The position numbers and the translations under genes are program-made. The notes beneath the pieces are model-generated. The model was not told the origin of the DNA, searched no databases, and worked only from the letters and a program-made list of their open reading frames with translations. Positions 4,132 to 64,000 of a stretch of 64,000 nt of DNA are shown in pieces; within the stretch, counting starts at the first letter, position 1; each line of letters starts with the position of its first letter. The stretch lies in the IMG/VR virus record IMGVR_UViG_3300044445_000054, one strand, 5' to 3'. The DNA comes from a virus. Taxonomy: Duplodnaviria > Heunggongvirae > Uroviricota > Caudoviricetes.

Positions 4132-5010
4132 TCAGGGTCGGCCTAGCGTGGACAACATCGGAAAGTTGTCTCGCATCCGCCGTTCGTTCTCCTCGATATG
4201 CTCGTGCATCATCCGAGCTACCATCGGGACTTCGTCGTGATGGACTGTCACCTTGAAGTTGTCCGTCGAGTTCGGGTGAGGCTTGACGATCGAGAGCGCC
4301 AGCTCCTTGGCTATGCGTTCGGCCAGCCGCTTCGGGTAGACAAACTCGCCGCCCCGCTTGCGCAGTAGCTCGCTCAGATCGGTGGCTTCCAAAGGCTTGC
4401 GTGTCATCAGCGTTATTGGGCCACCCACGTTCATCGTCCGAGATGTGCCATGATCGAACACCAGCGGCTGACCCGGCGTCGTCGCCCTGCTCCCAAGGTT
4501 CAGTTTCCAAGACGGGTACTTCTCCTTGAGGCGCGACCACCGTTCCAAGGAACGGACGAACTCGCTGTCGTTCACGACAGGCACGAGCCGGAAGACCTGC
4601 GCCCGCTTGTCGAGGTGGTAGTCCCGCGTGCGCAGGATGCGCTTGCCGTCGAACTCGATCTGGCAAATGCCGAAGTCGAACTCCTTGAGCGCATACGGCA
4701 TCACGATGATGTTGATCGGCGGACAGCCGGGGAACTTGGTCTCCAGCGACATCGAAATACGCTCGCCGTTGTAGGTCTTGTCGCTGACCACGTCGATGTC
4801 CTGCCAGCCGTCGGCAGCCATCGCCCTCCGAACACGGCGACCGTGCTCGACGTCAGTCGACTCGCACGGCACGAAGATGTCGATGTCCTTGACCTTCACG
4901 CCCTGCTCCCGGTCGCGGAGACAGCCACCGGCCATCACCGCATCGGGGTAGAGCACCTGCACCGAGGCGAGCGCGCTGCGCCACGCCTTCGGGATGTCCG
5001 CGACTTCCAT
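4132..5010 (-). CDS. CCA-adding enzyme / poly(A) polymerase-family nucleotidyltransferase (head domain)
   Basis: AGGCLRDREQGVKVKDIDIFVP matches the GGxVRD...DxDh signature of the tRNA nucleotidyltransferase family. AAGGGG SD. Confidence 0.6.
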   Translation of the reverse strand: MEVADIPKAWRSALASVQVLYPDAVMAGGCLRDREQGVKVKDIDIFVPCESTDVEHGRRVRRAMAADGWQDIDVVSDKTYNGERISMSLETKFPGCPPINIIVMPYALKEFDFGICQIEFDGKRILRTRDYHLDKRAQVFRLVPVVNDSEFVRSLERWSRLKEKYPSWKLNLGSRATTPGQPLVFDHGTSRTMNVGGPITLMTRKPLEATDLSELLRKRGGEFVYPKRLAERIAKELALSIVKPHPNSTDNFKVTVHHDEVPMVARMMHEHIEENERRMRDNFPMLSTLGRP

Positions 5011-43200: not shown

Positions 43201-44232
43201 GCCGCACAGCCGTCGCTCGACAAGCGCCCGATGCGCAACAACTGGCCTGCGGCGATGGCAGCGGGAACTGCAAATCCGACGCTGACTTGCACTCTTCCTC
43301 CGTCCATGCGGATGGCCGTTCCGACTCAGCTGCGTCTCGGAACCGTCGTTGTTGGTCTGGTGGACACGGCAACTGGCAATATCACAACGGCCCCTGGCGC
43401 GACTTATGCAATTACGGCGGGCAATATCAACTTCGCAACGGGTGCGCTTACCGTGACGTTTGCGGGAACGCCGCCTAACAGCACTCGACTGTATTGCGAG
43501 CAGGATTTCGGCGACGGCGCGGGCGTTGGGGGAAATCTGATCCTTAACGGCATGCTTGACATGACGCCCTTGGACGGAAGCAACATCAACTTCGCTCGCA
43601 CGGGCACCTCAACGATAACGGGCATCGCGAACTCGGAAGTCCCCGTGGGATACACGCTCCAGTCGTCGGGCAATGGTATGAACACGGCGATTGCAAACGG
43701 CACCGCATCGCTGACGGTGAGTTCCGACACCACAAACGGGTATCCGATGTTCCGGCTGTCTGCGAAGGGTATCCACAGCTCAGCTATTGCCTTCACGCTG
43801 CAGCAGGCCAACGGGCCGTACGCGGCTCTGGTCCAACCCACCGACAAGATTATGGCAGGGGCAACTCTGGTTCTTGAAGCTGGCTCGGACGGCTGGCTGT
43901 ACGGCTTCGGTGGTTGCAATGTGTCGGGTACGCTGTCGATCCCCACGACCGATAAGACCGGCCCCAACGGTACGTTCGCGGTTACGCAGGTTTCCTCGAA
44001 TGGATCGCGACTGGGTCAGAACGCGCAGAGCCTGTATGTGGACAGCGCGCTGCTTGCCGCCAACGGGGGGCAGCCGTTCAAGAACCACTACCTCGGGCCT
44101 CAAGTCCAACCTGACGTGCAGCCGACTGGCACCGGAGGGTCGTTCTCCTTTTCGGTCGGAGCCAACGTCCCTTTCAGTTTCAAGATTGGCATTGGCCAGT
44201 ATCACTCGCGCGTTCGCAACGACGTAACCTAA
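40279..44232 (+). CDS. 1317-aa virion protein: N-terminal major-tail-protein-like domain, three Calx-beta-like repeats, large C-terminal domain
   Basis: Residues 1-~290 are highly similar (I estimate roughly 80%, not computed) to the 283-aa protein at 54975..55823. Repeats of VDIVTSGDTTVEGNETFNLLLS / VQGDVDVESNETFTVSLN. AAGGAG SD. Confidence 0.8.
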   Translation: MADVKTSAFMLSSATIMIGRAFVDDVFALTPDKHSVGMVSEVNITMDSSLTELTNGVAQATVDSKRTGLSTAISGNVFEMTAQNFLRAQGITTAATPVKRGILMGSAAGGSTSLSVASDPIPGEATSALTSVGDIPAGSTILIQRGDGETDYIFPTVSSGAATLNAGRYTIPIAGASAVPADMSFLIGARVWIVQPVPVGDIGDDEFFCVKIVGTLSNFDRPVVYIAPKVKMVKGFSAAFNETQYSSMQWELKPHMMSRGEIASGGRLSEIGARRTGRLFVGAGNDSATPGAVVPDATFSTNPSFTPTSGNSDTVFTANDGVIVNGAFAGRRWLLSGTAIGSGATIKTNAAGQLVLEVSALGTNGRVIQYTTAPLTVAAAAAKTLTFRNPPTVQLNEGDSGTKTFTYYIDASEAPTSNLVVPLTFQAGGTDASDYPGGTLPSVTSATILAGQTSVRVDIVTSGDTTVEGNETFNLLLSTPTGWTVGAFTSASGVILNDDVAPSPTVSLTAVDPQNEGNSGVTNYVYTVTRSSTSGAVNVPWAFAAGTTNAADFFGGLPTGGTVALANGVASGTFTIMVQGDVDVESNETFTVSLNPPSGYILGATSSATGTILNDDTVSAIVPFTSAFMTGDSRMDNSGGRGVTTTLSLTYGQTGYSSAGLIQPMLGNKWLWPEGFQRSVGASTTLRMVEANKTASFALTGNTAFDSTANVYDKIFNRGADGRYALRDPGTGAHVFELNSVNDGGGNGYYNQPFTASKSIIHTAADIDANLAAGKVVWLFNGCPSYASAYTMELRTITGNSWTATQTAGFIDGFDYGAPGVVGEFGSTPADYRVMTRKGSNPGQYEYTVDANGNYVAGGTAPTRVWVTHTGGGTLNAITPTSSHIKTMWAWYNSNAANFVYNGNDYGIPGCRYNRDPKRLIIVDTMKWLRADLNDGDVMAAKPGTMDILRLHHNILGAFWISKAVEEAMATAGYAAQPSLDKRPMRNNWPAAMAAGTANPTLTCTLPPSMRMAVPTQLRLGTVVVGLVDTATGNITTAPGATYAITAGNINFATGALTVTFAGTPPNSTRLYCEQDFGDGAGVGGNLILNGMLDMTPLDGSNINFARTGTSTITGIANSEVPVGYTLQSSGNGMNTAIANGTASLTVSSDTTNGYPMFRLSAKGIHSSAIAFTLQQANGPYAALVQPTDKIMAGATLVLEAGSDGWLYGFGGCNVSGTLSIPTTDKTGPNGTFAVTQVSSNGSRLGQNAQSLYVDSALLAANGGQPFKNHYLGPQVQPDVQPTGTGGSFSFSVGANVPFSFKIGIGQYHSRVRNDVT

Positions 44233-51544: not shown

Positions 51545-51580
51545 TGGGGCGGTCCTTCGGGGCCGCCCTTTTCTTTTGCA
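51545..51580 (+). terminator. rho-independent terminator after the capsid gene
   Basis: GGGGCGGTCCTTCGGGGCCGCCC stem-loop followed by TTTTCTTTT. Confidence 0.7.
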
Positions 51581-51648: not shown

Positions 51649-51972
51649 ATGTCGAACAAGCCTACCTCTTCGCGCTCCGCCGCCCCCGGCGTCGACCCTG
51701 CCCCGCACGCCGCCGACACCGCGCAGCCTGATCCGTCGCCCGCGCTGGTGAACGACGCATCGCCGAACCTGACCAAGGCCGACGACCCGAAGGCGCTGCC
51801 GGGCAACGGCGCGACCGCCGAGGTCGAGATGGTCAAGGTCCGCACCAAGGAGGACTCGATCCTCATGGACCCGTACTCGGCGCGTCACATCGACCGCGAA
51901 GGCGGCGAGGTTCCGGTGACCACGTTCATTAACGACGAGCTGGCCGAAGGCGGCCGGTTGGAGAAGTTCTAA
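51649..51972 (+). CDS. hypothetical virion protein (107 aa)
   Basis: AGGAGG SD. Confidence 0.45.
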   Translation: MSNKPTSSRSAAPGVDPAPHAADTAQPDPSPALVNDASPNLTKADDPKALPGNGATAEVEMVKVRTKEDSILMDPYSARHIDREGGEVPVTTFINDELAEGGRLEKF

Positions 51973-52679
51973 TGATCGTCCGCAGCGGTCTCGCTTTCTC
52001 GATCCCGGTTTTCTTCACGTCGGGCCTGCCCGACGCGGGGATCAACTGGCGGCTGCTTGGCACCGCCGGTGACGAGATCGCGAGCGGGACCGTTGCGGTG
52101 CCTGCGGACTCCGTCTCCATCGACCTGTCGATCGCTGCCGAGCACAACACGCTCGGCAGCGGTTCGCTGTTCGCCAGCCGCGACTTCGAGTGGAGCTACA
52201 CCGTTGGCGGTGCCGTGGTGAACGGCGAGCAGCGGTACAGCGTCGAGGCGCGTGCGCCGTACGGCGCGTCGAACACGGGCGTGCGAGCCAAGCTCGGCGT
52301 CGAACCCAAGGATTTGCCGGACGGCGACATCTCGCTGATCCGTGCCTTCGTCTCCTTCCGTGACACCGTCACCGCCGATCGGCTGGTCGGGATCACGGAC
52401 GAGGCCGTGCTGCTGTCGATCCGTGATGCGATCGAGGCGCGGGCGGGGCTGAGCCTGATCGCCACGATGGCCGTGCGCGTCGCCGTGTCCGAGGACAGCG
52501 GCACCAACGCGTTCAAGCGGCAGGCGGTGGACTGGGAAGCCGTCGCCGAGAACCTCGCGTCGATCGTCGATGCCGGGATCAGTGCGGTCGATCCGACCTA
52601 CGACCAGACGCCCACGGGCGCGCTGTTCATTCTGGCGACGCCAGCGACCGATCCCTTCACCGGCGGCTCGTACTCCTAA
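51972..52679 (+). CDS. hypothetical virion protein (235 aa)
   Basis: TAATG coupling. Confidence 0.45.
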   Translation: MIVRSGLAFSIPVFFTSGLPDAGINWRLLGTAGDEIASGTVAVPADSVSIDLSIAAEHNTLGSGSLFASRDFEWSYTVGGAVVNGEQRYSVEARAPYGASNTGVRAKLGVEPKDLPDGDISLIRAFVSFRDTVTADRLVGITDEAVLLSIRDAIEARAGLSLIATMAVRVAVSEDSGTNAFKRQAVDWEAVAENLASIVDAGISAVDPTYDQTPTGALFILATPATDPFTGGSYS

Positions 52680-53116
52680 GTCCCGGTCCGCAGCAACTCG
52701 ACCGCCAGCACGCGGTAGTTCCGCTGCTCGGACTGCGACATCGGCATCATCTTGAACGCCGACACGACCAGCTCGCTGCCGACGCTGCCATCGGACAGCA
52801 CGAGCAGATCGACCTTCTTCCCCTCGCCGAACCGATCGTGCATCTGCGCGATCAGGTCGACCTCGGTCAGCAGGTTCACGTCGCGGAAGCTGGACACGGC
52901 CAGCGAGTACCGGATGACCCACCGCCCCTCATTCTCGTCGAACGAGAAGCCATCCACGCCGATCAGCGTGGCCATCGGCAGCTCGGTCTCTGGGGTCCGC
53001 TCTTCCCAGTTGTGGTACTGGACCGGAGTGGGGTAGAGCGGGCTGGCGTTCACCGCTTCGATCAGCTCGGTCGTCGCCCGGACGATCGACTTATAGATTG
53101 CAGGAATTGGTGACAT
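52676..53116 (-). CDS. hypothetical protein (147 aa) on the opposite strand inside the structural arm (moron-like)
   Basis: MSPIPAIYKSIVRATTELIEAVNASPLYPTPVQYHNWEER... GGAG SD. Its start codon overlaps the start codon of 53115.. (CATG). Confidence 0.45.
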   Translation of the reverse strand: MSPIPAIYKSIVRATTELIEAVNASPLYPTPVQYHNWEERTPETELPMATLIGVDGFSFDENEGRWVIRYSLAVSSFRDVNLLTEVDLIAQMHDRFGEGKKVDLLVLSDGSVGSELVVSAFKMMPMSQSEQRNYRVLAVELLRTGT

Positions 53117-53990
53117 GGCAAGAACTCCGCGGCCGATCCAGTATGTCTTCAAGATCGGCAAGGGCAAGGTCAAGGCGCGGCGCGAGTCGGAGAACCCAAC
53201 TCGTACGGTCCTTGAACAGGTGACGCTCCAGTACCTCAACGACAGCTGGGACGCCACCCGCAAACGCTTGGCCGAGACGATCGCCAGCGACGTGCGATCC
53301 GAGCTGGTGTTCGTCGCTGGGCAATTCCGGCGCAACGTCATTGGCGCGCCGGGAAACCAGCGCGGCCTCGTCGGCACCCTGACGACCAAGGCGCGCGGCG
53401 GCACCGAGCCGAAGGAGAGCCTCGGCCGCCTGCCGCGGTGGGCACCACGCGGCGCGCGGTATCTGGAGGACAAGAAGTCCTTCACCGGTCACCAGAACTG
53501 GTTCGACAACACCGGCTGGGAGGGGCAGGGTGGCACGCTCGCGAACTTCTTCGCCAGCGACCGTGTCGCGACGGAGGGTGGTGCCGAGATCAACGTCGGC
53601 AGCGGCGGCATTCTCGAAGACATGTTCGGCGGGATCAACGTCCAGATCATCCGCAACAACCAGATGACCGGGCGCAACTCCGGCGCGATCAAGGTGGGAC
53701 CGGACGGCAAGACCAATGACATTCAGGTTGCGACCATCCGCGTCCGCGCGCTCGGCGCGGTCACCGAGCGCATGATGCAGATTTCCGACCAGCCGAACAC
53801 CGCGCTGCTCGACGTGATCGGTCGCGAGGACAAGGAAGTCGCGCTGCATCTGCGCGGCGGTCGCGGCCGGTATCGGCCGACGCTGGAGCCGTACTTGCGG
53901 TTCTTCCTCGAACGCTCGATCCCGCAGGCCGTGCAGCAGCGGCTGGCGAAGGGCGTCGCCAGCGGCCGACTGTTCAGGCGTGCATCATAG
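53115..53990 (+). CDS. hypothetical virion protein (291 aa)
   Basis: AGGAA SD. Gly-rich middle region. Confidence 0.5.
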   Translation: MARTPRPIQYVFKIGKGKVKARRESENPTRTVLEQVTLQYLNDSWDATRKRLAETIASDVRSELVFVAGQFRRNVIGAPGNQRGLVGTLTTKARGGTEPKESLGRLPRWAPRGARYLEDKKSFTGHQNWFDNTGWEGQGGTLANFFASDRVATEGGAEINVGSGGILEDMFGGINVQIIRNNQMTGRNSGAIKVGPDGKTNDIQVATIRVRALGAVTERMMQISDQPNTALLDVIGREDKEVALHLRGGRGRYRPTLEPYLRFFLERSIPQAVQQRLAKGVASGRLFRRAS

Positions 53991-54671
53991 CCCGGTTGAT
54001 CTGGGATACCGCGTCTTCGACGTTCTTGTGACCCGCCGCCAAGTCGCGCGCGGGGGCCTTGTGCCCGCCCGTCTCGCCGCCGCCGAGCGCCGCATTGACG
54101 ATCATCACGAACGAGTTGTGGTGGGACATGAGGGTAGCGTTCTGCTCGCCGAGCCGCAGCTGTATCTTCTGGGAAATCTCACGCCGCGCGTAGGTCCAGT
54201 AGATGTCGTTGAGGTCTCCCTCAACGACACCGAAGGCCCAGCACACCGCGTCCTCGAAGCTCAGGCTTCGGAACCATCCTTGGTAGGCGTCGGCAGGGCC
54301 TGCTGATACCGGACCCCCAGATTTGCCATTCCCAGGGTCCGTTTCACGAAAAAATACAGGGCGTGTTCCGTCGCCCACATCAGGACCATCTCGGTTTCGT
54401 CCGAGTCGATCCCGACTTCTTCGATCGCGATCAGGTCAGCCGGATCGTTGATGATCTTGTTGCTCTCCGTCAGGACGCGGCGGACGATGTAGTCCTGCGT
54501 GTACGGATCGGTCTGGATCAGGGTGAGCGCGGTGGCCGGGTCCGGCAGTAGCCGACGGATGTCCATCTCAAGACCGTAGGTCATCTTGTAGGACTTGCCG
54601 CCGACCTCGATCGACAGCTCTGGACGCGTCGGCAGCGTCATCGGTGCGGTGGGTGCGGGATCAGAGGACAT
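53974..54671 (-). CDS. predicted -1 frameshift fusion (GT-like) of 54261..54671 with the overlapping ORF 53974..54378
   Basis: The two ORFs overlap by 118 nt. A -1 shift on UUUUUUC (Y106-F107-F108) continues ...FFRETDPGNGKSGG... to 53974, giving ~232 aa. Confidence 0.35.
54261..54671 (-). CDS. tail-assembly-chaperone-like protein (G-like frame)
   Basis: PELSIEVGGKSYKMTYGLEMDIRRL resembles the LxLGGxxYxLxFTL motif of GTA/phage tail assembly chaperones. Contains the slippery heptamer T TTT TTC at 54348..54354. Confidence 0.45.
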   Translation of the reverse strand: MSSDPAPTAPMTLPTRPELSIEVGGKSYKMTYGLEMDIRRLLPDPATALTLIQTDPYTQDYIVRRVLTESNKIINDPADLIAIEEVGIDSDETEMVLMWATEHALYFFVKRTLGMANLGVRYQQALPTPTKDGSEA

Positions 54672-54879
54672 CGGTCACTTCCCGCTTGATGAGCCGCGCG
54701 ACCGCGGCGTCGAGACTAACATGCTCACCCATGCCAAGTCGAAGAAGTTGATTAACCTTGCCGTTGACGTGCATGCCGTCAGCGTGGGCCATATCTCCGA
54801 GCTTTGCATAGATGGACTCAGGAACGCGCACGGTAAAACTCCGGTGCGGTTCTTTGGGTGTGGAAGGCGCTTTCGACAT
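54661..54879 (-). CDS. ribbon-helix-helix (CopG/Arc-type) DNA-binding protein
   Basis: MSKAPSTPKEPHRSFTVRVPESIYAKLGDMA. GGAGA SD. Confidence 0.5.
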   Translation of the reverse strand: MSKAPSTPKEPHRSFTVRVPESIYAKLGDMAHADGMHVNGKVNQLLRLGMGEHVSLDAAVARLIKREVTDVL

Positions 54880-54974
54880 AAATCTCCGGTGGTGACGGGC
54901 GGTTGGCATTTTCTCTATTGAGCCAAAGCAGAAACAAGGCAAGAGGCAATCTGAGTTTGAAAAGGAGCGCCTCG

Positions 54975-55823
54975 ATGGCCGACGTTCAGAAGTCCGCATT
55001 TGCCCTGTCCTCGGCCACGATCATGATCGGTCGCGCCTTCGTGGACGATGTTTTTGGTCTTTCGCCCGACAAGCATTCGGTCGGCATGGTGTCGGAGGTG
55101 AACATCGCCCTCGACAGCTCGCTGACGGAATTGATGAACGGCGTCGCGCAGGCCACTGTCGACTCGAAGCGCAGCGGTATCTCCGCCAGCATCACCGGCA
55201 ACGTCTACGAAATGACCGCGCAGAACTTCCTGCGAGCCAGCGCGCTGTCGACGACCGCCGTGCCGGTGAAGCGTGGCCGTCTGTCCACCGCCATTGCCAG
55301 CGGCGGTGTGTCGCTGTCGATCGTGTCCGACCCGATCCCCGGTGAGGCCACCTCGGCGATCACGGCGCTGACCGACATTCCGGCCGGGTCGACCATCCTG
55401 ATCCAGCGCGGCGACGGCGAGACGGACTACGTCTTCCCGACCGTCACGTCGGCAGCGGCGACGGGCACCGGCCCGTTCGTCGTGCCGATCGCGGGCACCT
55501 ATGCCATCCCCGCCGACCTGTCGTTCCCGGTCGGCGCGCGTGTCTGGGTCGTGCACCCGGTTCCGGTCGGCGACATCGACGCGGACGAGCTGTTCTGCGT
55601 GAAGATCGCGGGCACGCTGTCCAACTTCGATCGCCCCGTCGTGTACGTCGCGCCGAAGGTGAAGATGGTGAAGGGCTTCGGCATCTCGTTCAACGAGACG
55701 CAGTACAGCTCGATGCCGTGGGAAATGAAGCCGCTGCTCATGAGCCGCGGCGAGATCGCCTCGGCGGTCCGGCTGGCCGAAGTCGGCTCGCGGCGCTCCG
55801 GCCGACTGTACGTCGGCGGTTAA
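54975..55823 (+). CDS. major tail (tube) protein
   Basis: 283 aa. AAGGAG SD. A strong terminator directly downstream. Paralogous to the N-terminus of 40279..44232. Confidence 0.55.
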   Translation: MADVQKSAFALSSATIMIGRAFVDDVFGLSPDKHSVGMVSEVNIALDSSLTELMNGVAQATVDSKRSGISASITGNVYEMTAQNFLRASALSTTAVPVKRGRLSTAIASGGVSLSIVSDPIPGEATSAITALTDIPAGSTILIQRGDGETDYVFPTVTSAAATGTGPFVVPIAGTYAIPADLSFPVGARVWVVHPVPVGDIDADELFCVKIAGTLSNFDRPVVYVAPKVKMVKGFGISFNETQYSSMPWEMKPLLMSRGEIASAVRLAEVGSRRSGRLYVGG

Positions 55824-55849
55824 GGGGTTCTCCCTTGACGAATGCACGA

Positions 55850-55880
55850 GAGGCGGTCCAATGGGCCGCCTCTTTTGTTT
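55850..55880 (+). terminator. rho-independent terminator after the major tail gene
   Basis: GAGGCGG-tccaatggg-CCGCCTC followed by TTTTGTTT. Approximate coordinates. Confidence 0.6.
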
Positions 55881-55889
55881 GGAGCCATC

Positions 55890-56381
55890 GTGGCTGAAAT
55901 CCCCGTCGAACACGTCCGTGACTCGCACAAGCTCCTCGCCGACGGGCGGGTCGATTTGTTCGAGCTGACGCCGTCGGGCGGCACGGGTGTTATCCGGTTC
56001 AAGAACGACAACAACGTCACATGGCGCGGCCAGCTCTACACCGGCCTGCCGCTAACGCTCACCGGCGAGAAGCGCAGCGATAACGGCAACACCATGCCGC
56101 GGCTCCAGATCGGTCAGCCCAACATCGACATCTCGCAGTTCAAGGCGCTGGTCTACGACGGGTATCTGGACAACGCGATCGTCACCAAGATCACGGTGCT
56201 GCTCGACAACCTCATCAACAACCGCTTCATCCGCGAGACCACGACCTACCGCGTCAAGCGCGTCGAGGGCTACTCGCGTTCGCAGATTAGCCTCCAGCTG
56301 GCGACCCTCTCCGACAGCCTCGGCTTCTCCATGCCCTACCGGACGTACACGCCGCCGGGTTTCCCCTCGGTGCAAATGTGA
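55890..56381 (+). CDS. minor tail protein (lambda gpL/gpM-like by position)
   Basis: GTG start with GGAG SD after the terminator. The track ORF starts at 55842. Confidence 0.45.
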   Translation: MAEIPVEHVRDSHKLLADGRVDLFELTPSGGTGVIRFKNDNNVTWRGQLYTGLPLTLTGEKRSDNGNTMPRLQIGQPNIDISQFKALVYDGYLDNAIVTKITVLLDNLINNRFIRETTTYRVKRVEGYSRSQISLQLATLSDSLGFSMPYRTYTPPGFPSVQM

Positions 56382-56845
56382 TGAAGTACGAGCACCTTGT
56401 CGGCCGACCCTTCACGGGCATCGGCCGCGACGATTGCCTCAAGCTGATGCGCGACGTCTACCGCGACAACTTCGGCATCGAGATTTCCGACTACGCGCGC
56501 CCGCACGACTGGTCCTCGGACACGCTCGATCTCATGCGCCTGTGCTACCGGCGCGAGCGGTTCGAGATGATTACGGACTGGCGTCCGACGGACTTGCGGC
56601 CGGGCGATCTGCTATGTATGGCGATCGGCAGCAGCAATGCGAACCACTTCGCCGTGTACCTCGGCGACGACCAGATCATCCACCACCTGTACGGACGCAT
56701 GTCGTCGGTCGAGGTGTTCCGAGACTTCTACCGCAACTCGATCTGCTACGTGCTGCGGCACCCCGACGTCCCCAACCTCACGCCGGTCTACCCCGACGTG
56801 GACATTGCGAGTTTGCTCCGTGCTCGAAACAATCCTCCAGCCTGA
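56381..56845 (+). CDS. NlpC/P60-family tail peptidase (gpK-like half)
   Basis: Cys/His/His triad context: DDCLKL...NHFAVYLGDDQIIHH. Confidence 0.65.
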   Translation: MKYEHLVGRPFTGIGRDDCLKLMRDVYRDNFGIEISDYARPHDWSSDTLDLMRLCYRRERFEMITDWRPTDLRPGDLLCMAIGSSNANHFAVYLGDDQIIHHLYGRMSSVEVFRDFYRNSICYVLRHPDVPNLTPVYPDVDIASLLRARNNPPA

Positions 56846-57152
56846 CGACACCGAGGAGCGCTGCGGCCTCATCCTCAACGACGACTCGCTGGTCGAGATC
56901 GAGAACACCGCCGACGACAAGACGGGTAGCTACCACATGCGCGCCGAAGCGGTCCTGCCGTTCCTCGCCGCCGGGATGGTCAAGGGTACGTGGCACACGC
57001 ACCCGAACAGCGACCCGACCTTGAGTGGTGAGGATTATTCCGGCTTCCTTGATTGGCCCGGTCTGGTGCATAGCATCGTCGGCCGCCGCGATGGCGCGGT
57101 AGTCGTGACGACCTACAAGGTCGAGGACGGGCTGGTGATCGCATGCGACTAA
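56820..57152 (+). CDS. JAB/MPN (JAMM) metalloprotease-domain tail protein (gpK-like half)
   Basis: WHTHPNSDPTLSGED matches HxHx7Sx2D. Start approximate (GTG/TTG). Confidence 0.55.
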   Translation: MLETILQPDDTEERCGLILNDDSLVEIENTADDKTGSYHMRAEAVLPFLAAGMVKGTWHTHPNSDPTLSGEDYSGFLDWPGLVHSIVGRRDGAVVVTTYKVEDGLVIACD

Positions 57153-57673
57153 TCTTCCACGGCCAGCTCCGCACCCTCTTCGGCCCCGACGTGGTCATGG
57201 TCGCGCACCGCGTCGGCGATGCGATCGAGGGCTTCTCGCGTCAGGTCGCGTGGCCCAAGGACATGCTGATCGACGTGGTCGGTTTCAACACGCCCGAGAG
57301 CTTCCACGACTTCGCCGAGGAAGTTCACATCATGCCCGCGATGCGCGGCGGCGGCGGCAAGTTCGGATCGATCATTCTCGGCGCGGCGGTGGTCGCGCTG
57401 GGTGTCGCCCTGATCGCCACGCCCTTCGGCATCCCGCTGATCGTCAGCGGCGGCTTGATGATCGCGCAGGGCGTCATCGGCCTGTTCTTGAAATCCCCGA
57501 CGATCAAGGGCGTCAATGACCCCGAGGCGTCGAAGTACCTGCCCATCAACCGCAACACCACCGCGGTCGGCACCGTCATCACGATGGCGTGGGGCACGAT
57601 CGATCTGGCCGGACACTGGCTCAGCCTCCAGTCCGACAGCAACAATATCTCCTACGGCGTCTTCCCAGCATAA
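57143..57673 (+). CDS. tail assembly protein (gpI-like by position); Gly-rich, hydrophobic
   Basis: MRGGGGKFGSIILGAAVVALGVALIATPFGIPLIVSGGLMIAQGVIGLF. Confidence 0.45.
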   Translation: MRLIFHGQLRTLFGPDVVMVAHRVGDAIEGFSRQVAWPKDMLIDVVGFNTPESFHDFAEEVHIMPAMRGGGGKFGSIILGAAVVALGVALIATPFGIPLIVSGGLMIAQGVIGLFLKSPTIKGVNDPEASKYLPINRNTTAVGTVITMAWGTIDLAGHWLSLQSDSNNISYGVFPA

Positions 57674-57682
57674 GGACTGAAC

Positions 57683-58930
57683 ATGGACACTGCCACCCTC
57701 GAAAAGCTCAAGCCTTGGGCCACACCAATCCAGAGCGGCTACATCGACGCGATCATCGCCAGCGACGGCAACGTCAAGAAAGCCGCCGAGCTTCTCGACC
57801 GTCACCCCCGTAAGGTCCAAGAGGCGATCGCTCGCGTCCGCCTCGCCGCCGCCGGGCACGGATTTAGCCCGGAGCACGGCCTCAACTCACCAGTGCCCGC
57901 TCCGTTCATCGCCAAGGGCCACTCGACGCTCGAACGCGTGGAACTGGACGGCTCCCGCACCCCGGTCCTCCAATGGACCAAGACCCGCCTCGACGATCAT
58001 GCGTGGGCCGACCAGATCAAGCTCGGCGTCGAAGCCATGCTGGCCGACATCGAGCCGCGCGAGCTGCCCGCCGCGCCGCTGATCGGCGATCGTGACCTGA
58101 TCCCGTGGATCCAGATTGGCGACGCCCACCTCGGCATGCTGGCCCACGAGGCCGAGACCGGAGCCAACTTCGACCTCAAGATCGCCGAAGCCGAGCTGAT
58201 GGGCGCGATCGACATTCTGATCGACGACCTGCCCGAGGTCGAGCGCCTTGTCATCAACGACCTCGGCGACTTCACCCACTACGAGAACATGGCAGGCGTC
58301 ACCGAGCACAGCCGCAACGTGCTGGACTACGACGGCCGGTTCCCGAAGATGATCGAGGTCTATTCGCGCATGATGCGCGGGATCATCGAGAAGGCGCTGA
58401 CCAAGGCCGCCGTCGTGGACGTGATCGTCAATCAGGGCAATCACAGCCGCACGAACGACATCTGGATGGCGGTGCTGCTGCGGGCGCTGTACGAGGGCAG
58501 CGGGCGCGTCAACGTCCTGAACAACCGTTCGCCGTTCATCGGCTACCGGATGGGCAACACGTTCGTGATGACGCACCACTCCGACACCTGCAAGCCCGCC
58601 CGGCTGGCGTCGGTCATGGCGACCGACTTCGCCCGCGACTGGGGTGAGTGCGACTACCGCTACATCGACATCGGCCACATCCATCACGGCATGGTCCTGA
58701 AGGAGCATCCGGGCGTCGTGATCGAGAGCTTCAACCAGCTCGCGGCCAAGGACAAGTGGGCCACCGACGGCGGCTATCGCAGTCGCCAGTCGATCTCCAT
58801 GATCTATCGCTCGCGCACGTACGGCGAGATCGGCCGCCGTCTCCTGCCGCTGCGGCAGGTGCAGGACCGCATCCGCATGACGGCCACGGACCACTACGTC
58901 GCACCGGAGCGGCGGGCCTTCACCGTCTAA
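57683..58930 (+). CDS. calcineurin-like metallophosphoesterase with N-terminal HTH-like region
   Basis: GDAHLG, NDLGDF, GNHS, GHIHHG motifs. AAGGA SD. Confidence 0.7.
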   Translation: MDTATLEKLKPWATPIQSGYIDAIIASDGNVKKAAELLDRHPRKVQEAIARVRLAAAGHGFSPEHGLNSPVPAPFIAKGHSTLERVELDGSRTPVLQWTKTRLDDHAWADQIKLGVEAMLADIEPRELPAAPLIGDRDLIPWIQIGDAHLGMLAHEAETGANFDLKIAEAELMGAIDILIDDLPEVERLVINDLGDFTHYENMAGVTEHSRNVLDYDGRFPKMIEVYSRMMRGIIEKALTKAAVVDVIVNQGNHSRTNDIWMAVLLRALYEGSGRVNVLNNRSPFIGYRMGNTFVMTHHSDTCKPARLASVMATDFARDWGECDYRYIDIGHIHHGMVLKEHPGVVIESFNQLAAKDKWATDGGYRSRQSISMIYRSRTYGEIGRRLLPLRQVQDRIRMTATDHYVAPERRAFTV

Positions 58931-58960: not shown

Positions 58961-58992
58961 GCCATCGCCCGCGGCACACGCGGGCGATGGCC
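58961..58992 (+). other. perfect 13-bp hairpin GCCATCGCCCGCG-gcacac-CGCGGGCGATGGC enclosing the tape-measure start codon
   Basis: The right arm contains the ATG at about 58987. No SD outside the stem. Confidence 0.5.
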
Positions 58993-61900
58993 AATAACGT
59001 CTATACTCAAGAAGTTTTCTTCGATGCCGACGGCAGGCCAGTTCTTGACGCCCTCAAGAGCGTCGAGGGCTTCTTTCTTAACATCCAGAAAATCGTCTCT
59101 GGCATCGGCATTAAGTCGAAGGAAGACGCGCAGGCATGGGGCCTCCAGCTCTCCCAGAACCTCAGTGCGCTCAAGCAGGCACAGAGCGACATGCGTGCCA
59201 TCCAGCAGAACCGCGAGTCCTATCAAAATAAGAAGGGCTTCGGTCAGCTGGAAGCGGCCGAGAAGGAGTCCAACCGCAAGCGGCTGATCGAGTACAAGGT
59301 GCTGACCGCCGACAAGGCGCGGGAGGCAAAGGAAGAGGCCAGCGTCGAGAAGGCCTTGGCTCGCGAGGTTGCAGGCTACGAGGCCGAGCTGCTGCGCGCA
59401 CAGGTCGCCCAGCAGAAGGCCGCCGACCGCGCCGCCATCGCGTCGGCCAAGGAAGTCGCCGCCGCCCGCCGCGAGGCGGCGCAGGCCGCCGTCACCGCCA
59501 AGGCGCGCGGGATCACGAACCGTGACGACATCACCGCCGCCAAGGCTGCGAGCGACGCCCGGCTGGCGCAGCTGCGGCGCGAACGTGAGGCGATGGCCTC
59601 CAACGACGTGGCCGCCGCCCGTACCATCGCCGACCGGATCAATCTGGAGAAGGTGCTGGGACGCGAGCTGGACGCCACGCTCGCCAAGCTGAACCGGCAG
59701 ACGGTGGCCGAAGAGAAGGCGCGTGACGCCGCCAACCGGCGGCTGACGGGCGTCGCCTACAAGGATCAGGCGCTGCTCGCGCCGTCTGCCGTGCAGAAGA
59801 CGGCGGCGAACCTCGGCGCGGTTGGGGCGCGCGACTTCTATAAGAACGAGCAGGCGACGGCTCAGTCGATCCTGCGCGCCCGCATCGCCGACACTCGGTC
59901 GACGCTGGAGTCGCGCGTCGAGGCACAGCGCAATCTGGAGATCGCCAACCGGCGTGTGATCGAGGCCCAGAAGCTGGTCAACGAGGAGAACAAGGTCGCC
60001 GCTGCGCAGGAGCGCCAGCTGCGCGCCGCCGAGCGCCTCACCCTGCAGGAGCAGCGCACGACCGAGCAGGCGGCGCGTCGTGCATTGCAGGAGCAGCGCA
60101 ACGCCGAGTTCGAAGCGCGTCGTTCGCCGATGGGCCGGATCAAGACGGCGGCCACCAACCTCGGGCTGTACGGCGGCGTCGCGGGCGTCGGGTATGCCGC
60201 CTTTGGCGCAATCCAAGGCGGGCTGAGCGAAGTCATCCAGATGGAAGACGAGCTGGCCAAGCTGCAAGCGATCGCCAACGCCACGGAGCCGCAGCTTCAG
60301 AAGATGAAGTCGGCGATCTACAGCATCGGCGAGGCGTCGCGCTTCTCCAACGTCGATCTCGCCAAGGTGGCGCAGACGCTGGCACAGGCCGGTGTGACCG
60401 CGGGCGACATGCAGAAGGTGCTGTCCAGCGTCACCACGCTGGCGACCGCGTCCGGCTCCACGCCTGACGAGGCCGTGAACCTCGTCACGTCGGCGCTCGG
60501 CGCGTTCCAGCTCCAGTCGAGCGAGGCAGCGCGCATCGCCGACCTGATGACGTCGGCCCTGAACCGCACCAAGCTCACCGTGCAGCAGACCGGCCAGGCG
60601 ATCCAGTACGTCGGTGCCACCGCGTTCGAGCAGAACATCAGCCTCGAACAGCTGCTCGCCACCGTCGGTGCCATCGCGCAGGCAGGTGTTCGGTCCGGCT
60701 CGACGATCGGTACGGGCTTCCGCCAGTTCCTCGTCGATCTCCAGACGCCCTCAACCAAGTTGCAGGCTCAGCTCGACGCCGTCGGGCTGTCAGCGGCGCA
60801 GGTCAACGTCGCCGTCCGCGGCCTGCCCGCGGTCCTGAAGTCGCTGAACGAGGCGGGCTTCGGGGCGGCACAGGCGTATGGCGGGCTGGAGACGCGCGCG
60901 GCGGCCTTCTACCTTGTCGCCAAGAACAACACCGACATCATGGATCAGCTCCAGATGTCGTTCGCCCAGCAGGGCGCGGCGGCGATCGCCAACGAGCGGG
61001 CGATGAACTCGCTCACGGCGCAGTGGCAGCGCTTCAAGAACATCCTGTCGAGCGGCTTTGCCGACAGCCTCGAAGTGCCGATGCGGTTCTTGCAGGACTT
61101 GCTCAAGCGCCTGTCGGATCGACAGCTGGAGCTGGACGCGGCGGCCGAGAAGCTGTCGCGCGCCGACAAGGGCGGGCTGGAGGGCTACCAGCAGGAGTAC
61201 GGCACGGTCAGCGGCGCGGTCGGCTATTCGCTGAACACCGCCGGTCGCGATGCGATGCAGCAGGCGGCCGACGACATCAAGTTCATCCTGAACGGCTTCG
61301 GGCTGACCCAGCTTGCGGGCGTCGAAGGCATCGGCGACCAGTGGATCGCCTATACGCAGAAGATCGCGGGCGCGAAGGATGCGACGGACGACTTCGCTAC
61401 GTCGGTGGCGATGAACAGCGAGAACGTCGAGGCGCAGTCCAACAAGATCAGCGAGCTGGACAAGGAAATGGGTCGCCTGCTGACGCAGCAGGATAGCCTC
61501 AAGGATGGCAGCACGCAGGTCTCGGTCGAGACCGTGAACCTGACCTCGCGCTTCCAAGGGCTGGCCAAGTTCCTCACCAACGCCAAGGACAAGTACGGCG
61601 ACCTGATGCAGGCGATGCAGCGGTATCGCCAAGAGGCATTGCAGACGCAGAACGCCTATCTCAACAGCCAGATTTCGACGTTCGGCGAGCAGGCCAGCAT
61701 GGCGCAGGGCCGCGCCACGACGCTCGCCAATGAGGCGCTGAGCAGCGGACGCTACAACAACGACCCGCGCCTCATCCAGGCTCTCAAGCAGCCGCGACTT
61801 CTCGGCAACGCCAGCTACATCGCCGATGCGGGTGAGACGCGCAACGACCCGGTGCTGCGCGAGCTGAGCAAGAACGTCGGCACGCTCGCAATGGCGACGG

Positions 61901-64000
61901 CCGAGCAGAACATCGCGCGGCAGCAGCGGGACAGCGTTCGCACGCAGGCGACCACCGGCGGCCAGTCGCTGGAGCAGCGCACGCTGGCGAGCGAGAGCGC
62001 GCTGACCAAGTTCACCAGCCTGTCGCAGGACGAGCAGAGGGCACAGGCTCCCGCGCTGCGGGCACAGGTTCAGGCGATCGCTTCCGAGACCGCAGCGCGG
62101 CTCGCCAACCCGAAGACCGCCGACGCCGCCCGTGCGACGCTCAGGACGTGGGAGGTGCGTGCCAACGCCGTGCTCAAGGGCGTGGACGCTGCGCTGGCCC
62201 CGACGAAGGGTGAGATCAAAGCCGCCGCGGCTGCAGAGCGGGAGCGCAAGGCGTCCGAGCGGACGGCCAGCCGTAACGAGACGCTGGTCACGCAGGCCGA
62301 CATCGACAAGTTCGGGCAAGACCTCGGGCTGACGCTCGGCAGCGGCGTCCGCACCAAGGCGGAGCAGAACAGCCTGCACGCACGCGGTGTCACGCGCGCG
62401 ACGGGTGATACCTCGTCGCACTCGAACGGCGGTGTTGCCCGCGACTTCGGCGTGCGTGGGCTAGACGACGGAGCGGCCGAGCGGATGGCCGCCACGCTCC
62501 GTGCCCAGTACCGCGCCGCGGGGATCGAGGCGCGGGTCAAGTATGAGCGCGGCGGGCCGAACGATGGCACCGGCCGCCACATCCACGTCGACGTTCGCAA
62601 GGGCGCGAAGCGTCGCAGCGATCGTAGCGAGGAGTTGCAGGACAACAACGAGCTGGACATCGCTCGGTCGCAGTCGTCGCTCGACGAAGAAGACGTGAAG
62701 ATCAAGCTCAAGGACGTTGCGCAGGCGAGCCAAGATACGTTCGACGCGGCGACCAAGGCGGCCCGCGCCGCGCTCGACAAGCTCAACGGCGGCCTCGAAA
62801 GCCTCGCGCTGCAAGAACTGGCGACCAGCGGTGTTGCGCCCGGCACGCCCGAGTTCTCGGCCAAGCTGTTGCAGGTCCGTCAGTCGATCGCCCAGAACAA
62901 GGCCGAGTTCGAGCAGAAGATTGCCGACGCGATCATCAAGAGCACCGAAGCGCAGATCGAGTCGGCGCAGACGGCGTTCGACCAGCAGACCTCCGGCGCG
63001 GCGGGCACGCTGGCATATTCGCAGGCGAGCGCGGGTGGGCTGGAAGCCTACTCGCTGCGCAACCGTGTGCCCGACTACGTCAAGCAGCTGGCGAACGACC
63101 GGATTGGTGCGGGTCAAGAGAACCTCGCGCGCGTTCAGTACGCCGCCCTGCCTTCGCAGATTGCCGCGCAGCAGGCCGCCATCGCCGCGGCGATCGCTAC
63201 CTCCGACAAGGAGGGCGTGACCGAGCAGACGCAGGCCAAGATCGCGGGCATGAACGTCGAGCTGGAGAAGCTGATCGCGAACCGCGAGGCGCTGGCGGCG
63301 CAGCTCGGCGCGGGCGGACTGGTGCCGACCACCTTGGGTGCAGGACTTGAGCAGGCCATTCAGGCGTTCCGTCAGGCGAACGTGCTGGGCAACACCTTCA
63401 GCCAAGACCTCATCATGAACATGGGCGGGGCGCTGGAACAGGTCAACGGCGGTCTGACGAGCATGTTCACGTCGATCATCGAAGGCTCGTCGTCGGCGCT
63501 CGGTGCCTTCGCCAGCTTCTCGAAGGGCATCATGGCCTACATGGTGCAGATCGCGGCGAAGGCCGTGGCGACCAAGCTGATCGGCCTGCTGCTCAACTTC
63601 GCGAGCATCGGCGTCGGCGGGACAGCGTCGGGCGGCGGCAACGCCGCGGCCTCCGGCAGCGCAGGTAGTGTGTCGCTCGGCGGGCGCAGCGTGGTCCCAT
63701 TCGTCAGCAACTTCAAGGGCGGCCCAATCACCGGCTACGAGCGCGGCGGCGAGGTCATGAATGGCTCGCGCAGCCGCGACAGCGTCAACTCCAAGCTGGC
63801 GCGCGGCGAGTTCGTCATGCAGAACTCGGCCGTCGACAGCGTTGGCACCGAGTTCATGGCACAGCTCAACCAGCACGGCGCGCGTGCGCTGGATGGATTG
63901 CAGGCGATGCCGAAGCTCGATATGCAGACGAAGACCGAGACCAACGTCTGGGTGGTGCCGGGTGATCGGCCGCAGACGATGGGTCCGAACGACGTCAAGC
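58987..64000 (+). CDS. tail tape-measure protein, partial (runs off the window end), with embedded M15/VanY-like peptidase motif
   Basis: Open frame, translated by eye over 5 kb: MANNVYTQEVFFDADGRPV..., Ala/Gln/Glu-rich coiled coil. TP901-type core ...MKSAIYSIGEASRFSNVDLAKVAQTLAQAGVTAGDMQKVLSSVTTLATASGSTPDEAVNLVTSALGAFQL... Around 62.4-62.6 kb: SSHSNGGVARD...GRHIHVDV, an H-x-D ... HxH zinc-peptidase pattern. No stop up to 64000, so not in the ORF track. Confidence 0.6.
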   Translation, partial: MANNVYTQEVFFDADGRPVLDALKSVEGFFLNIQKIVSGIGIKSKEDAQAWGLQLSQNLSALKQAQSDMRAIQQNRESYQNKKGFGQLEAAEKESNRKRLIEYKVLTADKAREAKEEASVEKALAREVAGYEAELLRAQVAQQKAADRAAIASAKEVAAARREAAQAAVTAKARGITNRDDITAAKAASDARLAQLRREREAMASNDVAAARTIADRINLEKVLGRELDATLAKLNRQTVAEEKARDAANRRLTGVAYKDQALLAPSAVQKTAANLGAVGARDFYKNEQATAQSILRARIADTRSTLESRVEAQRNLEIANRRVIEAQKLVNEENKVAAAQERQLRAAERLTLQEQRTTEQAARRALQEQRNAEFEARRSPMGRIKTAATNLGLYGGVAGVGYAAFGAIQGGLSEVIQMEDELAKLQAIANATEPQLQKMKSAIYSIGEASRFSNVDLAKVAQTLAQAGVTAGDMQKVLSSVTTLATASGSTPDEAVNLVTSALGAFQLQSSEAARIADLMTSALNRTKLTVQQTGQAIQYVGATAFEQNISLEQLLATVGAIAQAGVRSGSTIGTGFRQFLVDLQTPSTKLQAQLDAVGLSAAQVNVAVRGLPAVLKSLNEAGFGAAQAYGGLETRAAAFYLVAKNNTDIMDQLQMSFAQQGAAAIANERAMNSLTAQWQRFKNILSSGFADSLEVPMRFLQDLLKRLSDRQLELDAAAEKLSRADKGGLEGYQQEYGTVSGAVGYSLNTAGRDAMQQAADDIKFILNGFGLTQLAGVEGIGDQWIAYTQKIAGAKDATDDFATSVAMNSENVEAQSNKISELDKEMGRLLTQQDSLKDGSTQVSVETVNLTSRFQGLAKFLTNAKDKYGDLMQAMQRYRQEALQTQNAYLNSQISTFGEQASMAQGRATTLANEALSSGRYNNDPRLIQALKQPRLLGNASYIADAGETRNDPVLRELSKNVGTLAMATAEQNIARQQRDSVRTQATTGGQSLEQRTLASESALTKFTSLSQDEQRAQAPALRAQVQAIASETAARLANPKTADAARATLRTWEVRANAVLKGVDAALAPTKGEIKAAAAAERERKASERTASRNETLVTQADIDKFGQDLGLTLGSGVRTKAEQNSLHARGVTRATGDTSSHSNGGVARDFGVRGLDDGAAERMAATLRAQYRAAGIEARVKYERGGPNDGTGRHIHVDVRKGAKRRSDRSEELQDNNELDIARSQSSLDEEDVKIKLKDVAQASQDTFDAATKAARAALDKLNGGLESLALQELATSGVAPGTPEFSAKLLQVRQSIAQNKAEFEQKIADAIIKSTEAQIESAQTAFDQQTSGAAGTLAYSQASAGGLEAYSLRNRVPDYVKQLANDRIGAGQENLARVQYAALPSQIAAQQAAIAAAIATSDKEGVTEQTQAKIAGMNVELEKLIANREALAAQLGAGGLVPTTLGAGLEQAIQAFRQANVLGNTFSQDLIMNMGGALEQVNGGLTSMFTSIIEGSSSALGAFASFSKGIMAYMVQIAAKAVATKLIGLLLNFASIGVGGTASGGGNAAASGSAGSVSLGGRSVVPFVSNFKGGPITGYERGGEVMNGSRSRDSVNSKLARGEFVMQNSAVDSVGTEFMAQLNQHGARALDGLQAMPKLDMQTKTETNVWVVPGDRPQTMGPNDVK

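Follow-up and report, generated by a model that had tools for sequence, protein, structure and literature searches.

The window, a 64,000-nt stretch from an uncultured siphophage of approximately 83 kb whose cultured relatives include Caulobacter phage Seuss and Achromobacter phage JWF, contains an island of three overlapping minus-strand reading frames next to the plus-strand tail tube (major tail) gene (54975..55823). The first of these, at 54661..54879, encodes a small protein of the RHH (Arc/Mnt) type (72 aa, 7.9 kDa, pI 9.3). It is followed by ORF A (54261..54671; 136 aa, 15.1 kDa, pI 4.5, with the N-terminus MSSDPAPT...), predicted to encode a G-type tail assembly chaperone, and by ORF B (53974..54378; 134 aa), which overlaps ORF A by 118 nt. 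The ATG of G overlaps the RHH stop by 11 nt, and an overlap between RHH stop and G start is present in every relative. Within the ORF A/ORF B overlap, the heptamer U UUU UUC (54348..54354; frame A codons TAT TTT TTC) is the proposed site of a -1 shift. A shift at this position would generate a GT fusion (53974..54671) that is read in frame A from 54671 to 54348 and in the -1 frame from 54348 to 53974, the T-only part being located downstream of the G stop (53974..54260).

The ORF coordinates, the 118-nt overlap and the phasing of UUUUUUC in frame A were all reproduced as given in the first-pass annotation. The upstream limit of the island required correction: 54999 merely marks the start of the longest ORF, and the RHH start is assigned to ATG 54879, upstream of which lies a conserved CCGGAGATTT (GGAG). 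The island had also been described as antisense to all of its neighbours. This holds for the orientation of RHH-G-GT itself, but a second inverted structural gene (52676..53116; 146 aa, starting at ATG 53116), a homologue of JWF gp016, is likewise located on the minus strand, with the plus-strand gene 53115..53990 between it and the island.

ORF A matches PHROG 37198, 'tail length tape measure protein chaperone' (E=7e-10), and both tblastn and blastp relate it to the chaperones of Seuss and JWF, each of which is encoded between the tube and tape-measure genes. An AF2 model of G (pLDDT 88) was used for Foldseek comparison; the best viral match is the Seuss chaperone (E=1.4e-5, TM 0.71), with Seuss G and GT as the top matches. 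Pfam searches with G, T, RHH and the neighbouring proteins yielded only matches below threshold, a sequence-profile search of the PDB with G returned no match, and neither profile nor fold comparison placed G among curated TAC families or solved chaperone structures. The L.L.GG..Y.L.F.L motif previously read as a signature of tail assembly chaperones could not be verified; none of the 38 G homologues matches the Pfam Phage_TAC families. All 41 database relatives are labelled 'hypothetical' or unnamed, and GT is absent from the annotation of the JWF record. Together with the conservation of the heptamer and of the -1-frame domain described below, the PHROG 37198 match and the homology to G/GT of Seuss and JWF amount to strong comparative evidence for the earlier prediction that ORF A and ORF B represent a G/GT-type tail assembly chaperone pair with a -1 frameshift.

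At the proposed slip site, frame A reads ...CTG TAT TTT TTC GTG..., with T TTT TTC (54354..54348) forming a phased X XXY YYZ heptamer. Re-reading of C54348 leads seamlessly into frame B, as had been proposed, with ...HALYFF followed across the junction by RETDPGNGKSGG... in a fusion protein of 232 aa and 25.5 kDa. The peptide SGGPVSAGPADAYQGWFR is an example of frame-B sequence. T TTT TTC is the sole run of at least 6 T or A inside a coding region of the window. Phased X XXY YYZ heptamers occur only 9 times in 12,405 codons (26 genes), and none of these nine is T TTT TTC; in this genome, Phe is encoded by TTT in only 6.5% of cases and Tyr by TAT in 24%.

Absence of the heptamer from relatives had been set beforehand as an outcome that would speak against recoding. 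Of 18 metagenomic relatives (47-73% identity), 17 carry an in-phase T TTT TTC while their flanking codons differ synonymously, and the identical TAT TTT TTC is located at the homologous YFF of both Seuss and JWF (27-32% identity). The -1 extension is retained as well. KB12-38 has GAT TTT TTT (TTTTTTT) at the homologous site, and the heptamer is kept across phages of alpha-, beta- and gammaproteobacteria. The one exception, L018, reads TAT TCT TTT ACG, leaving just a U UUU tetramer, with the T domain still present in the -1 frame. The heptamer is more than a chance occurrence. The recoding itself is not new, since 'ribosomal slippage' is already annotated at this same site in the Seuss record (YP_009785531 / YP_009785530; 16854), and the novelty of the locus resides in its gene arrangement only. 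The Seuss slippage annotation was itself made by analogy.

The T-only part, with its motif ...DAVCWAFG...ARREISQKIQLKLGE..HNS..., shows a mean pairwise identity of 54%, compared to 56% for the G core. Differences by codon position amount to 0.35/0.30/0.60, and the greater variability of the third position is a coding pattern, as found for a segment under protein-coding selection. Equivalent GT fusions in the relatives range from 228 to 245 aa. The second of the two overlapping ORFs, in the -1 frame, lacks a start of its own. In L001, L002 and L004 the -1 frame has no start codon at any point ahead of the conserved T domain, and elsewhere the sole candidate is an xTG. A conserved Trp codon of G dictates this xTG, which is N-TGG read from the preceding base. 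Inspection by eye of the 18 nt upstream of the xTG revealed neither GGAG nor AGGA.

The first-pass annotation had suggested a search for a pseudoknot or stem-loop downstream of the heptamer, and no convincing structure was found there. A possible hairpin, GGACCC...GGGUCC (54311..54340, minus strand), starts 7 nt 3' of the heptamer and appears in the minimum-free-energy fold of the window sequence. A core of 4-5 bp is retained in most relatives, with 71% of cells paired against 68% in shuffled alignments (86/500). RNAalifold does not pick this hairpin, and downstream of the heptamer yields a weak consensus of -6.75 kcal/mol; the single-sequence folding window has a z-score of -1.2. As the hairpin performs no better than shuffles, we do not claim a frameshift stimulator. 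A GGAG 11 nt upstream of the heptamer is limited to about two thirds of the sequences, and the Glu/His codons at this position account for it.

The proposal that G is preceded by an Arc/Mnt-type RHH gene is borne out at the profile level. A profile built from 12 homologues recovered AmrZ (3qoq, E=1.1e-4 over residues 8-49), followed by Mnt (0.12) and Arc (0.38), thus recognising the RHH fold with its N-terminal beta-strand and two helices. Pfam Arc (PF03869) matches two members of the family (best E=1.7e-7), and the HicB and CopG RHH families weakly match 8 and 4 members. The window's own protein falls below all Pfam thresholds, with sub-threshold HicB, CopG and Arc matches only. RHH homologues occupy the same position in 18 relatives, and further homologues correspond to JWF gp017 ('Arc-like') and to an unannotated Seuss ORF. 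On the basis of these profile matches, the protein is predicted to be a DNA-binding regulator.

The RHH and tube genes diverge from a conserved 95-nt control region (54880..54974), in which the blocks TGCCTCTTGCCTT, (G)CTCAATAG and CAACC are invariant among 11 relatives. A putative promoter-like element directed into RHH-G-GT, CTTGCC-N17-CAATAG (54915..54943, minus strand), was read by eye. It is the sole match to the relaxed pattern CTTGNN-N16-18-YAWTAD on both strands of the window, both hexamers fall in invariant alignment blocks, and it resembles what we take to be the form of alphaproteobacterial sigma-70 promoters (CTTGAC-N17-CTATAT). A scan with the E. coli consensus identified no promoter in the control region, and a search of this region for repeats with a seed of at least 6 nt found none. 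A TGCCT-N2-TGCCT direct repeat lies over the -35 element, as seen by eye only.

The orientation of RHH-G-GT, antisense to and divergent from the tube gene, is genuine and conserved in all 18 relatives, in keeping with the divergent upstream end initially described. The tube family profile matches PDB 9n71_B ('Tail tube', E=1.3e-35), and homologues of the tube gene directly precede G/GT in Seuss and JWF. The tube gene of the window carries an AAGGAG ribosome-binding site, with a strong terminator-like hairpin at its 3' side (55848..55874). The plus-strand tape-measure gene (58987..64000), which runs off the window and encodes >1671 aa, matches PHROG 37649 (E=1.4e-80) as well as 12 other tape-measure PHROGs. 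It is located approximately 4.3 kb from G/GT and, as was already remarked, on the opposite strand, both in the window and in the 18 relatives, where it has the same position. The tail module also contains L, K and I matches, with the tape-measure gene of the window clade coming after I and a metallophosphatase gene. In Seuss, JWF and KB12-38, G/GT are flanked by the tube and tape-measure genes and share their strand, an arrangement that is diagnostic of such pairs and is found neither in the window nor in the 18 relatives. The canonical placement of these homologues supports descent of the inverted pair from canonically placed G/GT.

Between GT and 52676..53116 the scans revealed neither a promoter-like nor a terminator-like site, and the latter gene may belong to the same minus-strand transcription unit as RHH-G-GT. 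A blastn search with 52000..58000 against phage genomes gave no match. The bacterial genome collection that was searched contains no relatives, and there is hence no sign of a prophage. A search of the literature for chaperones encoded on the opposite strand returned nothing relevant, and the TCUP2199 paper does not contain virion proteomics.

Comparison with known systems places both the similarities and the rearrangement in context. Seuss G has 27% identity to the window G (blastp), and Seuss shares the same TAT TTT TTC at the homologous ...H-x-x-Y-F-F as well as a -1 extension of similar size with the same ...DAVCWAF... motif. Upstream of the Seuss tube gene is a minus-strand, unannotated RHH ORF (L014:7321..7713). 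In contrast to the window, Seuss G/GT shares the strand of the tube gene and is immediately flanked by the tube and tape-measure genes, with M-L-K-I-J after the tape measure; the Seuss RHH ORF is standalone and longer (130 aa), whereas in the window clade G/GT is inverted and joined to RHH. JWF gp019 is a homologous G (32% identity) with TAT TTT TTC and a 131-codon -1 extension carrying the T motif, and gp017, an Arc-like gene of the minus strand, diverges from the tube gene gp018. JWF differs in having the canonical order of tube, G(T) and tape measure on a single strand, and in the placement of gp016 on the plus strand upstream of Arc, whereas its counterpart 52676..53116 is inverted in the window. 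The RHH protein resembles P22 Arc/Mnt and AmrZ in its small size and N-terminal beta-strand motif (F-T-V-R-V-P in the window). P22 arc and mnt (immI region) are embedded among late genes and have divergent promoters. Unlike the window gene, they control an antirepressor, none being present here, and the window RHH gene differs in being translationally coupled to tail chaperone genes.

The tape-measure chaperone and slippage annotation of Seuss originates from its genome publication (Genome Announc 2015, PMC4591317), while frameshifting in the tail chaperone genes of long-tailed phages is well documented (Levin 1993; Xu, Hendrix and Duda 2004, 2013, 2014; reviewed in PMC5009743). In lambda, gpG and gpGT are made at a low fixed GT:G ratio, and both are absent from virions (PMC5009743). 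As in the window, lambda G is small and acidic, the -1 shift uses a phased heptamer close to the 3' end of G, the T domain is reached only via the shift, and the products are of ~15 and 25 kDa. Lambda differs in its slippery sequence (G GGA AAG), in the location of its genes (flanked by V and H, all on one strand), and in the lack of an attached regulator gene; furthermore, no sequence, Pfam or fold similarity to the window G is detectable.

It is highly probable, in our assessment, that the locus as a whole is a minus-strand operon that encodes RHH, G and, by -1 frameshifting, GT. The first gene of this proposed three-gene operon would provide the basic 72-aa DNA-binding protein and the second the acidic 136-aa chaperone G. 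A minority of ribosomes, with tRNA-Phe on UUU in the P site and on UUC in the A site, would slip by -1 on U UUU UUC towards the end of G. The slipped ribosomes would go on in the -1 frame to produce GT (232 aa), consisting of the shared G part and the T domain. We infer that frameshifting does occur, and at a rate that keeps it to this minority. On the model of lambda gpG/gpGT, G, on its own or as part of GT, would coat the tape-measure protein and the T domain would recruit the tail tube protein as their presumed binding partners, and neither G nor GT would stay in the virion. The putative promoter CTTGCC-N17-CAATAG in the shared 95-nt region probably drives the operon, and this control region is also the probable target of the RHH protein.

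The same fusion would arise if RNA polymerase added an extra U in the U6 run and the resulting mRNAs were translated normally. As both routes predict the same protein, computation cannot separate ribosomal from transcriptional slippage. Polymerase slippage is consistent with the homopolymeric nature of the site, which extends to T7 in KB12-38, and with the short GC hairpin just 5' of the U run. However, efficient slippage by bacterial RNA polymerase involves runs of ~8-9, longer than the U6 present here, and what stays conserved is the phased X XXY YYZ including its final C. L018 keeps just U UUU, and therefore fits a tRNA slip better than polymerase slippage. With the homologous and analogous G/GT cases being treated as ribosomal, we consider the transcriptional route quite improbable. 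The same U run could instead form the U-tract in an intrinsic terminator or attenuator located within G (hairpin 54376..54359 plus UGUAUUUUUU), so that fewer transcripts would reach the T region and the antisense sequence past it, a function that could coexist with frameshifting. A pattern scan does flag the hairpin concerned as terminator-like (GGGCG-N8-CGCCC; 54359..54376, minus strand), and in an alignment of 18 sequences 80% of the stem cells are paired and 3 show compensation, a level attained by 10/500 shuffles. This covariation is weak, and the hairpin is not universal, being missing in six or more lineages, among them L007, L012, L013, L019, L021 and JWF. Moreover, the stem is just 5 bp long, four bases lie between stem and U run, and the scan returned 5 such sites against 2.3 expected by chance. 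The T domain downstream is under coding selection, so that transcripts must continue past the U run, and we consider a terminator very improbable.

Initiation at GTG 54378 would yield ORF B as a separate 134-aa protein with no need for recoding. The -1 frame of the window and of most relatives does offer a GTG or ATG, 24 nt 5' of the heptamer, and gene callers did call such ORFs (P0002-P0004). This xTG is nonetheless forced by the Trp codon of G and has no GGAG or AGGA visible upstream, three relatives (L001, L002 and L004) have no start at all before the T domain, and independent translation leaves the invariant rare-codon heptamer unexplained, making it extremely improbable that ORF B is expressed in this manner. 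High-GC genomes do hold many long spurious ORFs, as illustrated by the antisense of 53115..53990, which is open for ~290 codons, and the -1-frame ORF and heptamer could in principle be chance features of a GC-rich genome with ORF B unexpressed. This explanation is effectively refuted by a frame that is open, and a protein that is conserved, in all relatives including those of lower GC, by the coding pattern of substitution, and by retention of the heptamer across phages of three proteobacterial classes.

Beyond the proposed frameshift operon, the inversion might represent a regulatory design, in which one RHH-controlled minus-strand transcript would run from ~54908 through RHH, G and GT, antisense over 53115..53990, to 52676..53116. 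We regard this as rather unlikely. If true, chaperone dosage and timing would leave the late structural operon and be tied to an autoregulated repressor that shares its control region with the tube gene, and transcription within the tail module would be convergent. G/GT would then need neither to adjoin their tape-measure client gene nor to share an mRNA with it.

The frameshift proposed here is a further example of a very familiar class. The gene arrangement urges caution for annotation pipelines and frameshift predictors that seek G/GT only between the tube and tape-measure genes. This uncultured clade (18 contigs) departs from the near-universal order of tube, G/GT and tape measure, with the chaperone pair flipped, placed behind a small repressor-type gene in a predicted operon and no longer linked to the gene for the tape measure. 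It thus constitutes a natural experiment, suggesting that cis-linkage of the chaperone and tape-measure genes is dispensable.

Gene G (ORF A, 54261..54671, minus strand), a candidate tail assembly chaperone gene, encodes a protein of 136 aa (15.1 kDa, pI 4.5) and overlaps by 118 nt a -1-frame ORF of 134 aa (ORF B, 53974..54378, minus strand). Because the G codons at the site read ...GAA CAC GCC CTG TAT TTT TTC GTG AAA CGG..., the minus-strand T TTT TTC at 54354..54348 is a phased X XXY YYZ heptamer. Re-reading of C54348 continues as RETDPGNGKSGG... and predicts a fusion (GT) of 232 aa and 25.5 kDa, in which G is joined to a -1-frame domain (T). The coordinates, overlap, phase and seamless -1 continuation described in the first-pass annotation, a reading of the sequence alone, were all reproduced. 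The slip-site run is the sole T/A run of at least 6 within the coding regions of the window, and phased X XXY YYZ heptamers occur only 9 times in 12,405 codons (26 genes), none of the 9 being T TTT TTC. With TTT used for 6.5% of Phe codons and TAT for 24% of Tyr codons, the slip site is not explained by compositional chance.

Conservation was assessed in 18 relatives with 47-73% identity to G, comprising 17 contigs obtained by pattern searches of IMG/VR and one Logan assembly. TTTTTTC is found in the same phase and at the same ...EH-x-L-Y-F-F position in 17/18, with synonymous variation in the flanking codons, and is also in phase in Caulobacter phage Seuss and Achromobacter phage JWF. The -1 frame is open for ~124-132 codons in the relatives, and its product is conserved (...WFR.LSF.DAVCWAFG...ARREISQKIQLKLGE..HNS...). 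Mean pairwise identity is 54% for the segment beyond the G stop, compared to 56% for the G core, and frame B substitutions in that segment fall at codon positions 1/2/3 as 0.35/0.30/0.60. Conservation of both the site and the T domain supports the original reading of a G/GT-type pair with -1 frameshifting, and rules out a chance origin of site and ORF B. The single exception is the most divergent relative (L018, a Logan SRR22868748 contig, 4290..4310), which reads TAT TCT TTT ACG and retains only a U UUU tetramer, the conserved T domain still being in the -1 frame. Either slippage here would involve one tRNA at a weaker site, or the contig is misassembled.

That ORF B is initiated on its own is contradicted by relatives without any start codon: in three of them (L001, L002 and L004), ATG, GTG and TTG are absent from the -1 frame both upstream of the heptamer and ahead of the conserved domain. 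In the others, the sole -1-frame candidate is an xTG arising from the conserved Trp codon of G, and inspection by eye revealed no GGAG/AGGA motif within 18 nt upstream of it. Transcriptional slippage predicts the same GT protein as ribosomal frameshifting, but is disfavoured by the shortness of the run, by conservation of the phased pattern and by the L018 sequence. The most likely course is ribosomal frameshifting to yield the predicted GT fusion. A ribosome translating G would hold tRNA-Phe at UUU (P site) and at UUC (A site), and both tRNAs would slip back by one base and pair again with UUU UUU, such tandem slippage being well established; CGU GAA ACG... would then be read in the -1 frame. 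By analogy with the lambda G/GT model (PMC5009743), G and the G part of GT would bind the tape-measure protein while T would recruit the tube protein, and it would matter that GT is made at a low, fixed ratio to G.

The first-pass annotation had proposed looking for a downstream pseudoknot or stem-loop. A candidate hairpin (GGACCC...GGGUCC) does start 7 nt 3' of the heptamer in the window; across the relatives, it did not outperform shuffled controls, and a stimulator is not established. Immediately 5' of the heptamer, a 5-bp GC hairpin shows covariation that is marginal, and several lineages lack it. Reading this upstream hairpin and the U-tract as a terminator is a weak alternative, at best operating alongside frameshifting. 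The GGAG 11 nt upstream of the heptamer is common, and is accounted for by Glu/His codons.

G matches PHROG 37198 'tail length tape measure protein chaperone' (E=7e-10) and in alignments shares 27-32% identity with the chaperones of Seuss and JWF. A confident AlphaFold model of G (pLDDT 88), built from an alignment of 38 homologues, shows a beta-hairpin, three short helices and a long helix at the C-terminus; in BFVD, only the Seuss G and GT models match it significantly (E=1.4e-5 and 3.5e-4). The upstream gene on the same strand (54661..54879, minus) starts at ATG 54879, preceded by a conserved CCGGAGATTT, and encodes 72 aa (pI 9.3). Its assignment as a ribbon-helix-helix (RHH) protein was borne out at the profile level: a 12-homologue profile best matches AmrZ (3qoq, E=1.1e-4), spanning the beta-strand and both helices, followed by Mnt and Arc. 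Family members match several RHH Pfam families weakly, while the window's protein on its own falls below the Pfam threshold. The RHH stop and G start overlap in every relative (1-35 nt), which fits co-transcription and translational coupling. A protein identical to G (P0001) is recorded from a 131-kb JGI contig, and a 6.8-kb Logan contig (L016, SRR35356176) encodes proteins 100% identical to those of the window across the region; this phage genotype has thus turned up in at least two samplings.

The whole window is of phage origin. Minus-strand replication genes extend to about 40 kb, followed on the plus strand by terminase, portal, capsid and head-tail genes, the tail tube gene (54975..55823; family profile against PDB 9n71 'Tail tube', E=1.3e-35), homologues of lambda L, K (NlpC/P60 and MPN) and I, and a tape-measure gene (>1671 aa) cut off by the end of the window. 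Inside the tail module, a metallophosphatase-type 'DNA repair exonuclease' gene (57683..58930, plus; PHROG 704, E=2.9e-91) separates the I homologue from the tape-measure gene and is kept there in relatives; Seuss and JWF are without it at this position. Strong terminator-like hairpins lie 3' of the capsid gene (51546..51569) and of the tube gene (55848..55874). The listed ATG of the L homologue (55842) is upstream of the latter hairpin; its real start is likely GTG 55890, behind GGAG 55881..55884, which yields the 163-aa length also seen in Seuss and JWF. A 1317-aa ORF (40279..44232, plus), which precedes a tailspike-like ORF and the terminase gene, carries a complete second tube-protein copy at its N-terminus (residues 1-282, 75% identity to the stand-alone protein, E=5e-149) with ~1035 residues beyond. 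It is unusual for a tube subunit to carry so large an extension and to be encoded at a distance from the tail module.

The antisense island, divergent from the major tail gene, is real, with gene order and strands identical in 18/18 relatives; no relatives were found in 185,579 bacterial/archaeal genomes. Its neighbours are not all on the plus strand as had been described. Strands alternate from 51972..52679 (plus) through 52676..53116 (minus) and 53115..53990 (plus) to GT/G/RHH (minus) and tube (plus). The 52676..53116 gene, a homologue of JWF gp016, is a second inverted structural gene, back to back with 53115..53990; their divergent ATGs share a CATG palindrome (53114..53117). As the 53115..53990 frame is intact in all relatives while antisense frames are broken in lower-GC relatives, sequence comparison identifies it as a real gene. 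Gene ends abut or overlap, with convergent overlaps of 17 nt (53974..53990) and 4 nt (52676..52679), so that promoters or terminators have no space between the genes. No terminator-like or promoter-like sites were found between GT and 52676..53116, so a single minus-strand transcript could serve both islands, running antisense across 53115..53990.

The 95-nt gap between the RHH and tube start codons shows DNA-level conservation, and its blocks TGCCTCTTGCCTT, CTCAATAG and CAACC are invariant. It contains CTTGCC-N17-CAATAG (54943..54915, towards RHH), the sole match to a relaxed pattern in the window, which we take to resemble alphaproteobacterial sigma-70 promoters. An E. coli-consensus scan of the control region found nothing, so the RHH-G-GT promoter inferred here is putative. 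In one relative (L008, 4510..5232) the control region is 729 nt, compared to 95-115 nt in the others, and includes a 186-aa ORF on the tube-gene strand with an HNH-endonuclease-like motif (WHVDHV...N...NLQPLW).

Among distant cultured relatives, TAT TTT TTC is present in Seuss and JWF, and GAT TTT TTT in Pseudoalteromonas phage KB12-38. The Seuss CDS record is annotated 'ribosomal slippage (16854)', and its genome announcement mentions a conserved frameshift product (PMC4591317). JWF has a 131-codon -1 extension with the same motif as the relatives (L015:9268..9670, plus), unannotated, with G alone in the record. All three phages have the canonical one-strand order tube, G/GT, tape measure, M, L, K, I, J. 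Divergent from its tube gene, JWF carries a minus-strand gene annotated as Arc-like; in Seuss, the 437-nt gap ahead of the tube gene holds a 130-aa minus-strand ORF (L014:7321..7713) whose N-terminus is of RHH type and which is missing from the annotation. The Seuss ORF and the JWF extension are two apparent public annotation gaps. Since both phages have an RHH gene there, its position divergent from the tube gene is likely ancestral. In contrast, inversion of G/GT behind RHH, inversion of the gp016 homologue and displacement of the tape-measure gene are clade-specific. A limited search found no literature description of an inverted, RHH-coupled layout unlinked from the tape measure. The predicted recoding event is another member of a thoroughly known class, its site already annotated in a relative. 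What is unusual is the layout, a conserved variant of phage tail-module organisation in which G/GT is inverted, coupled to RHH and unlinked from the tape-measure gene.
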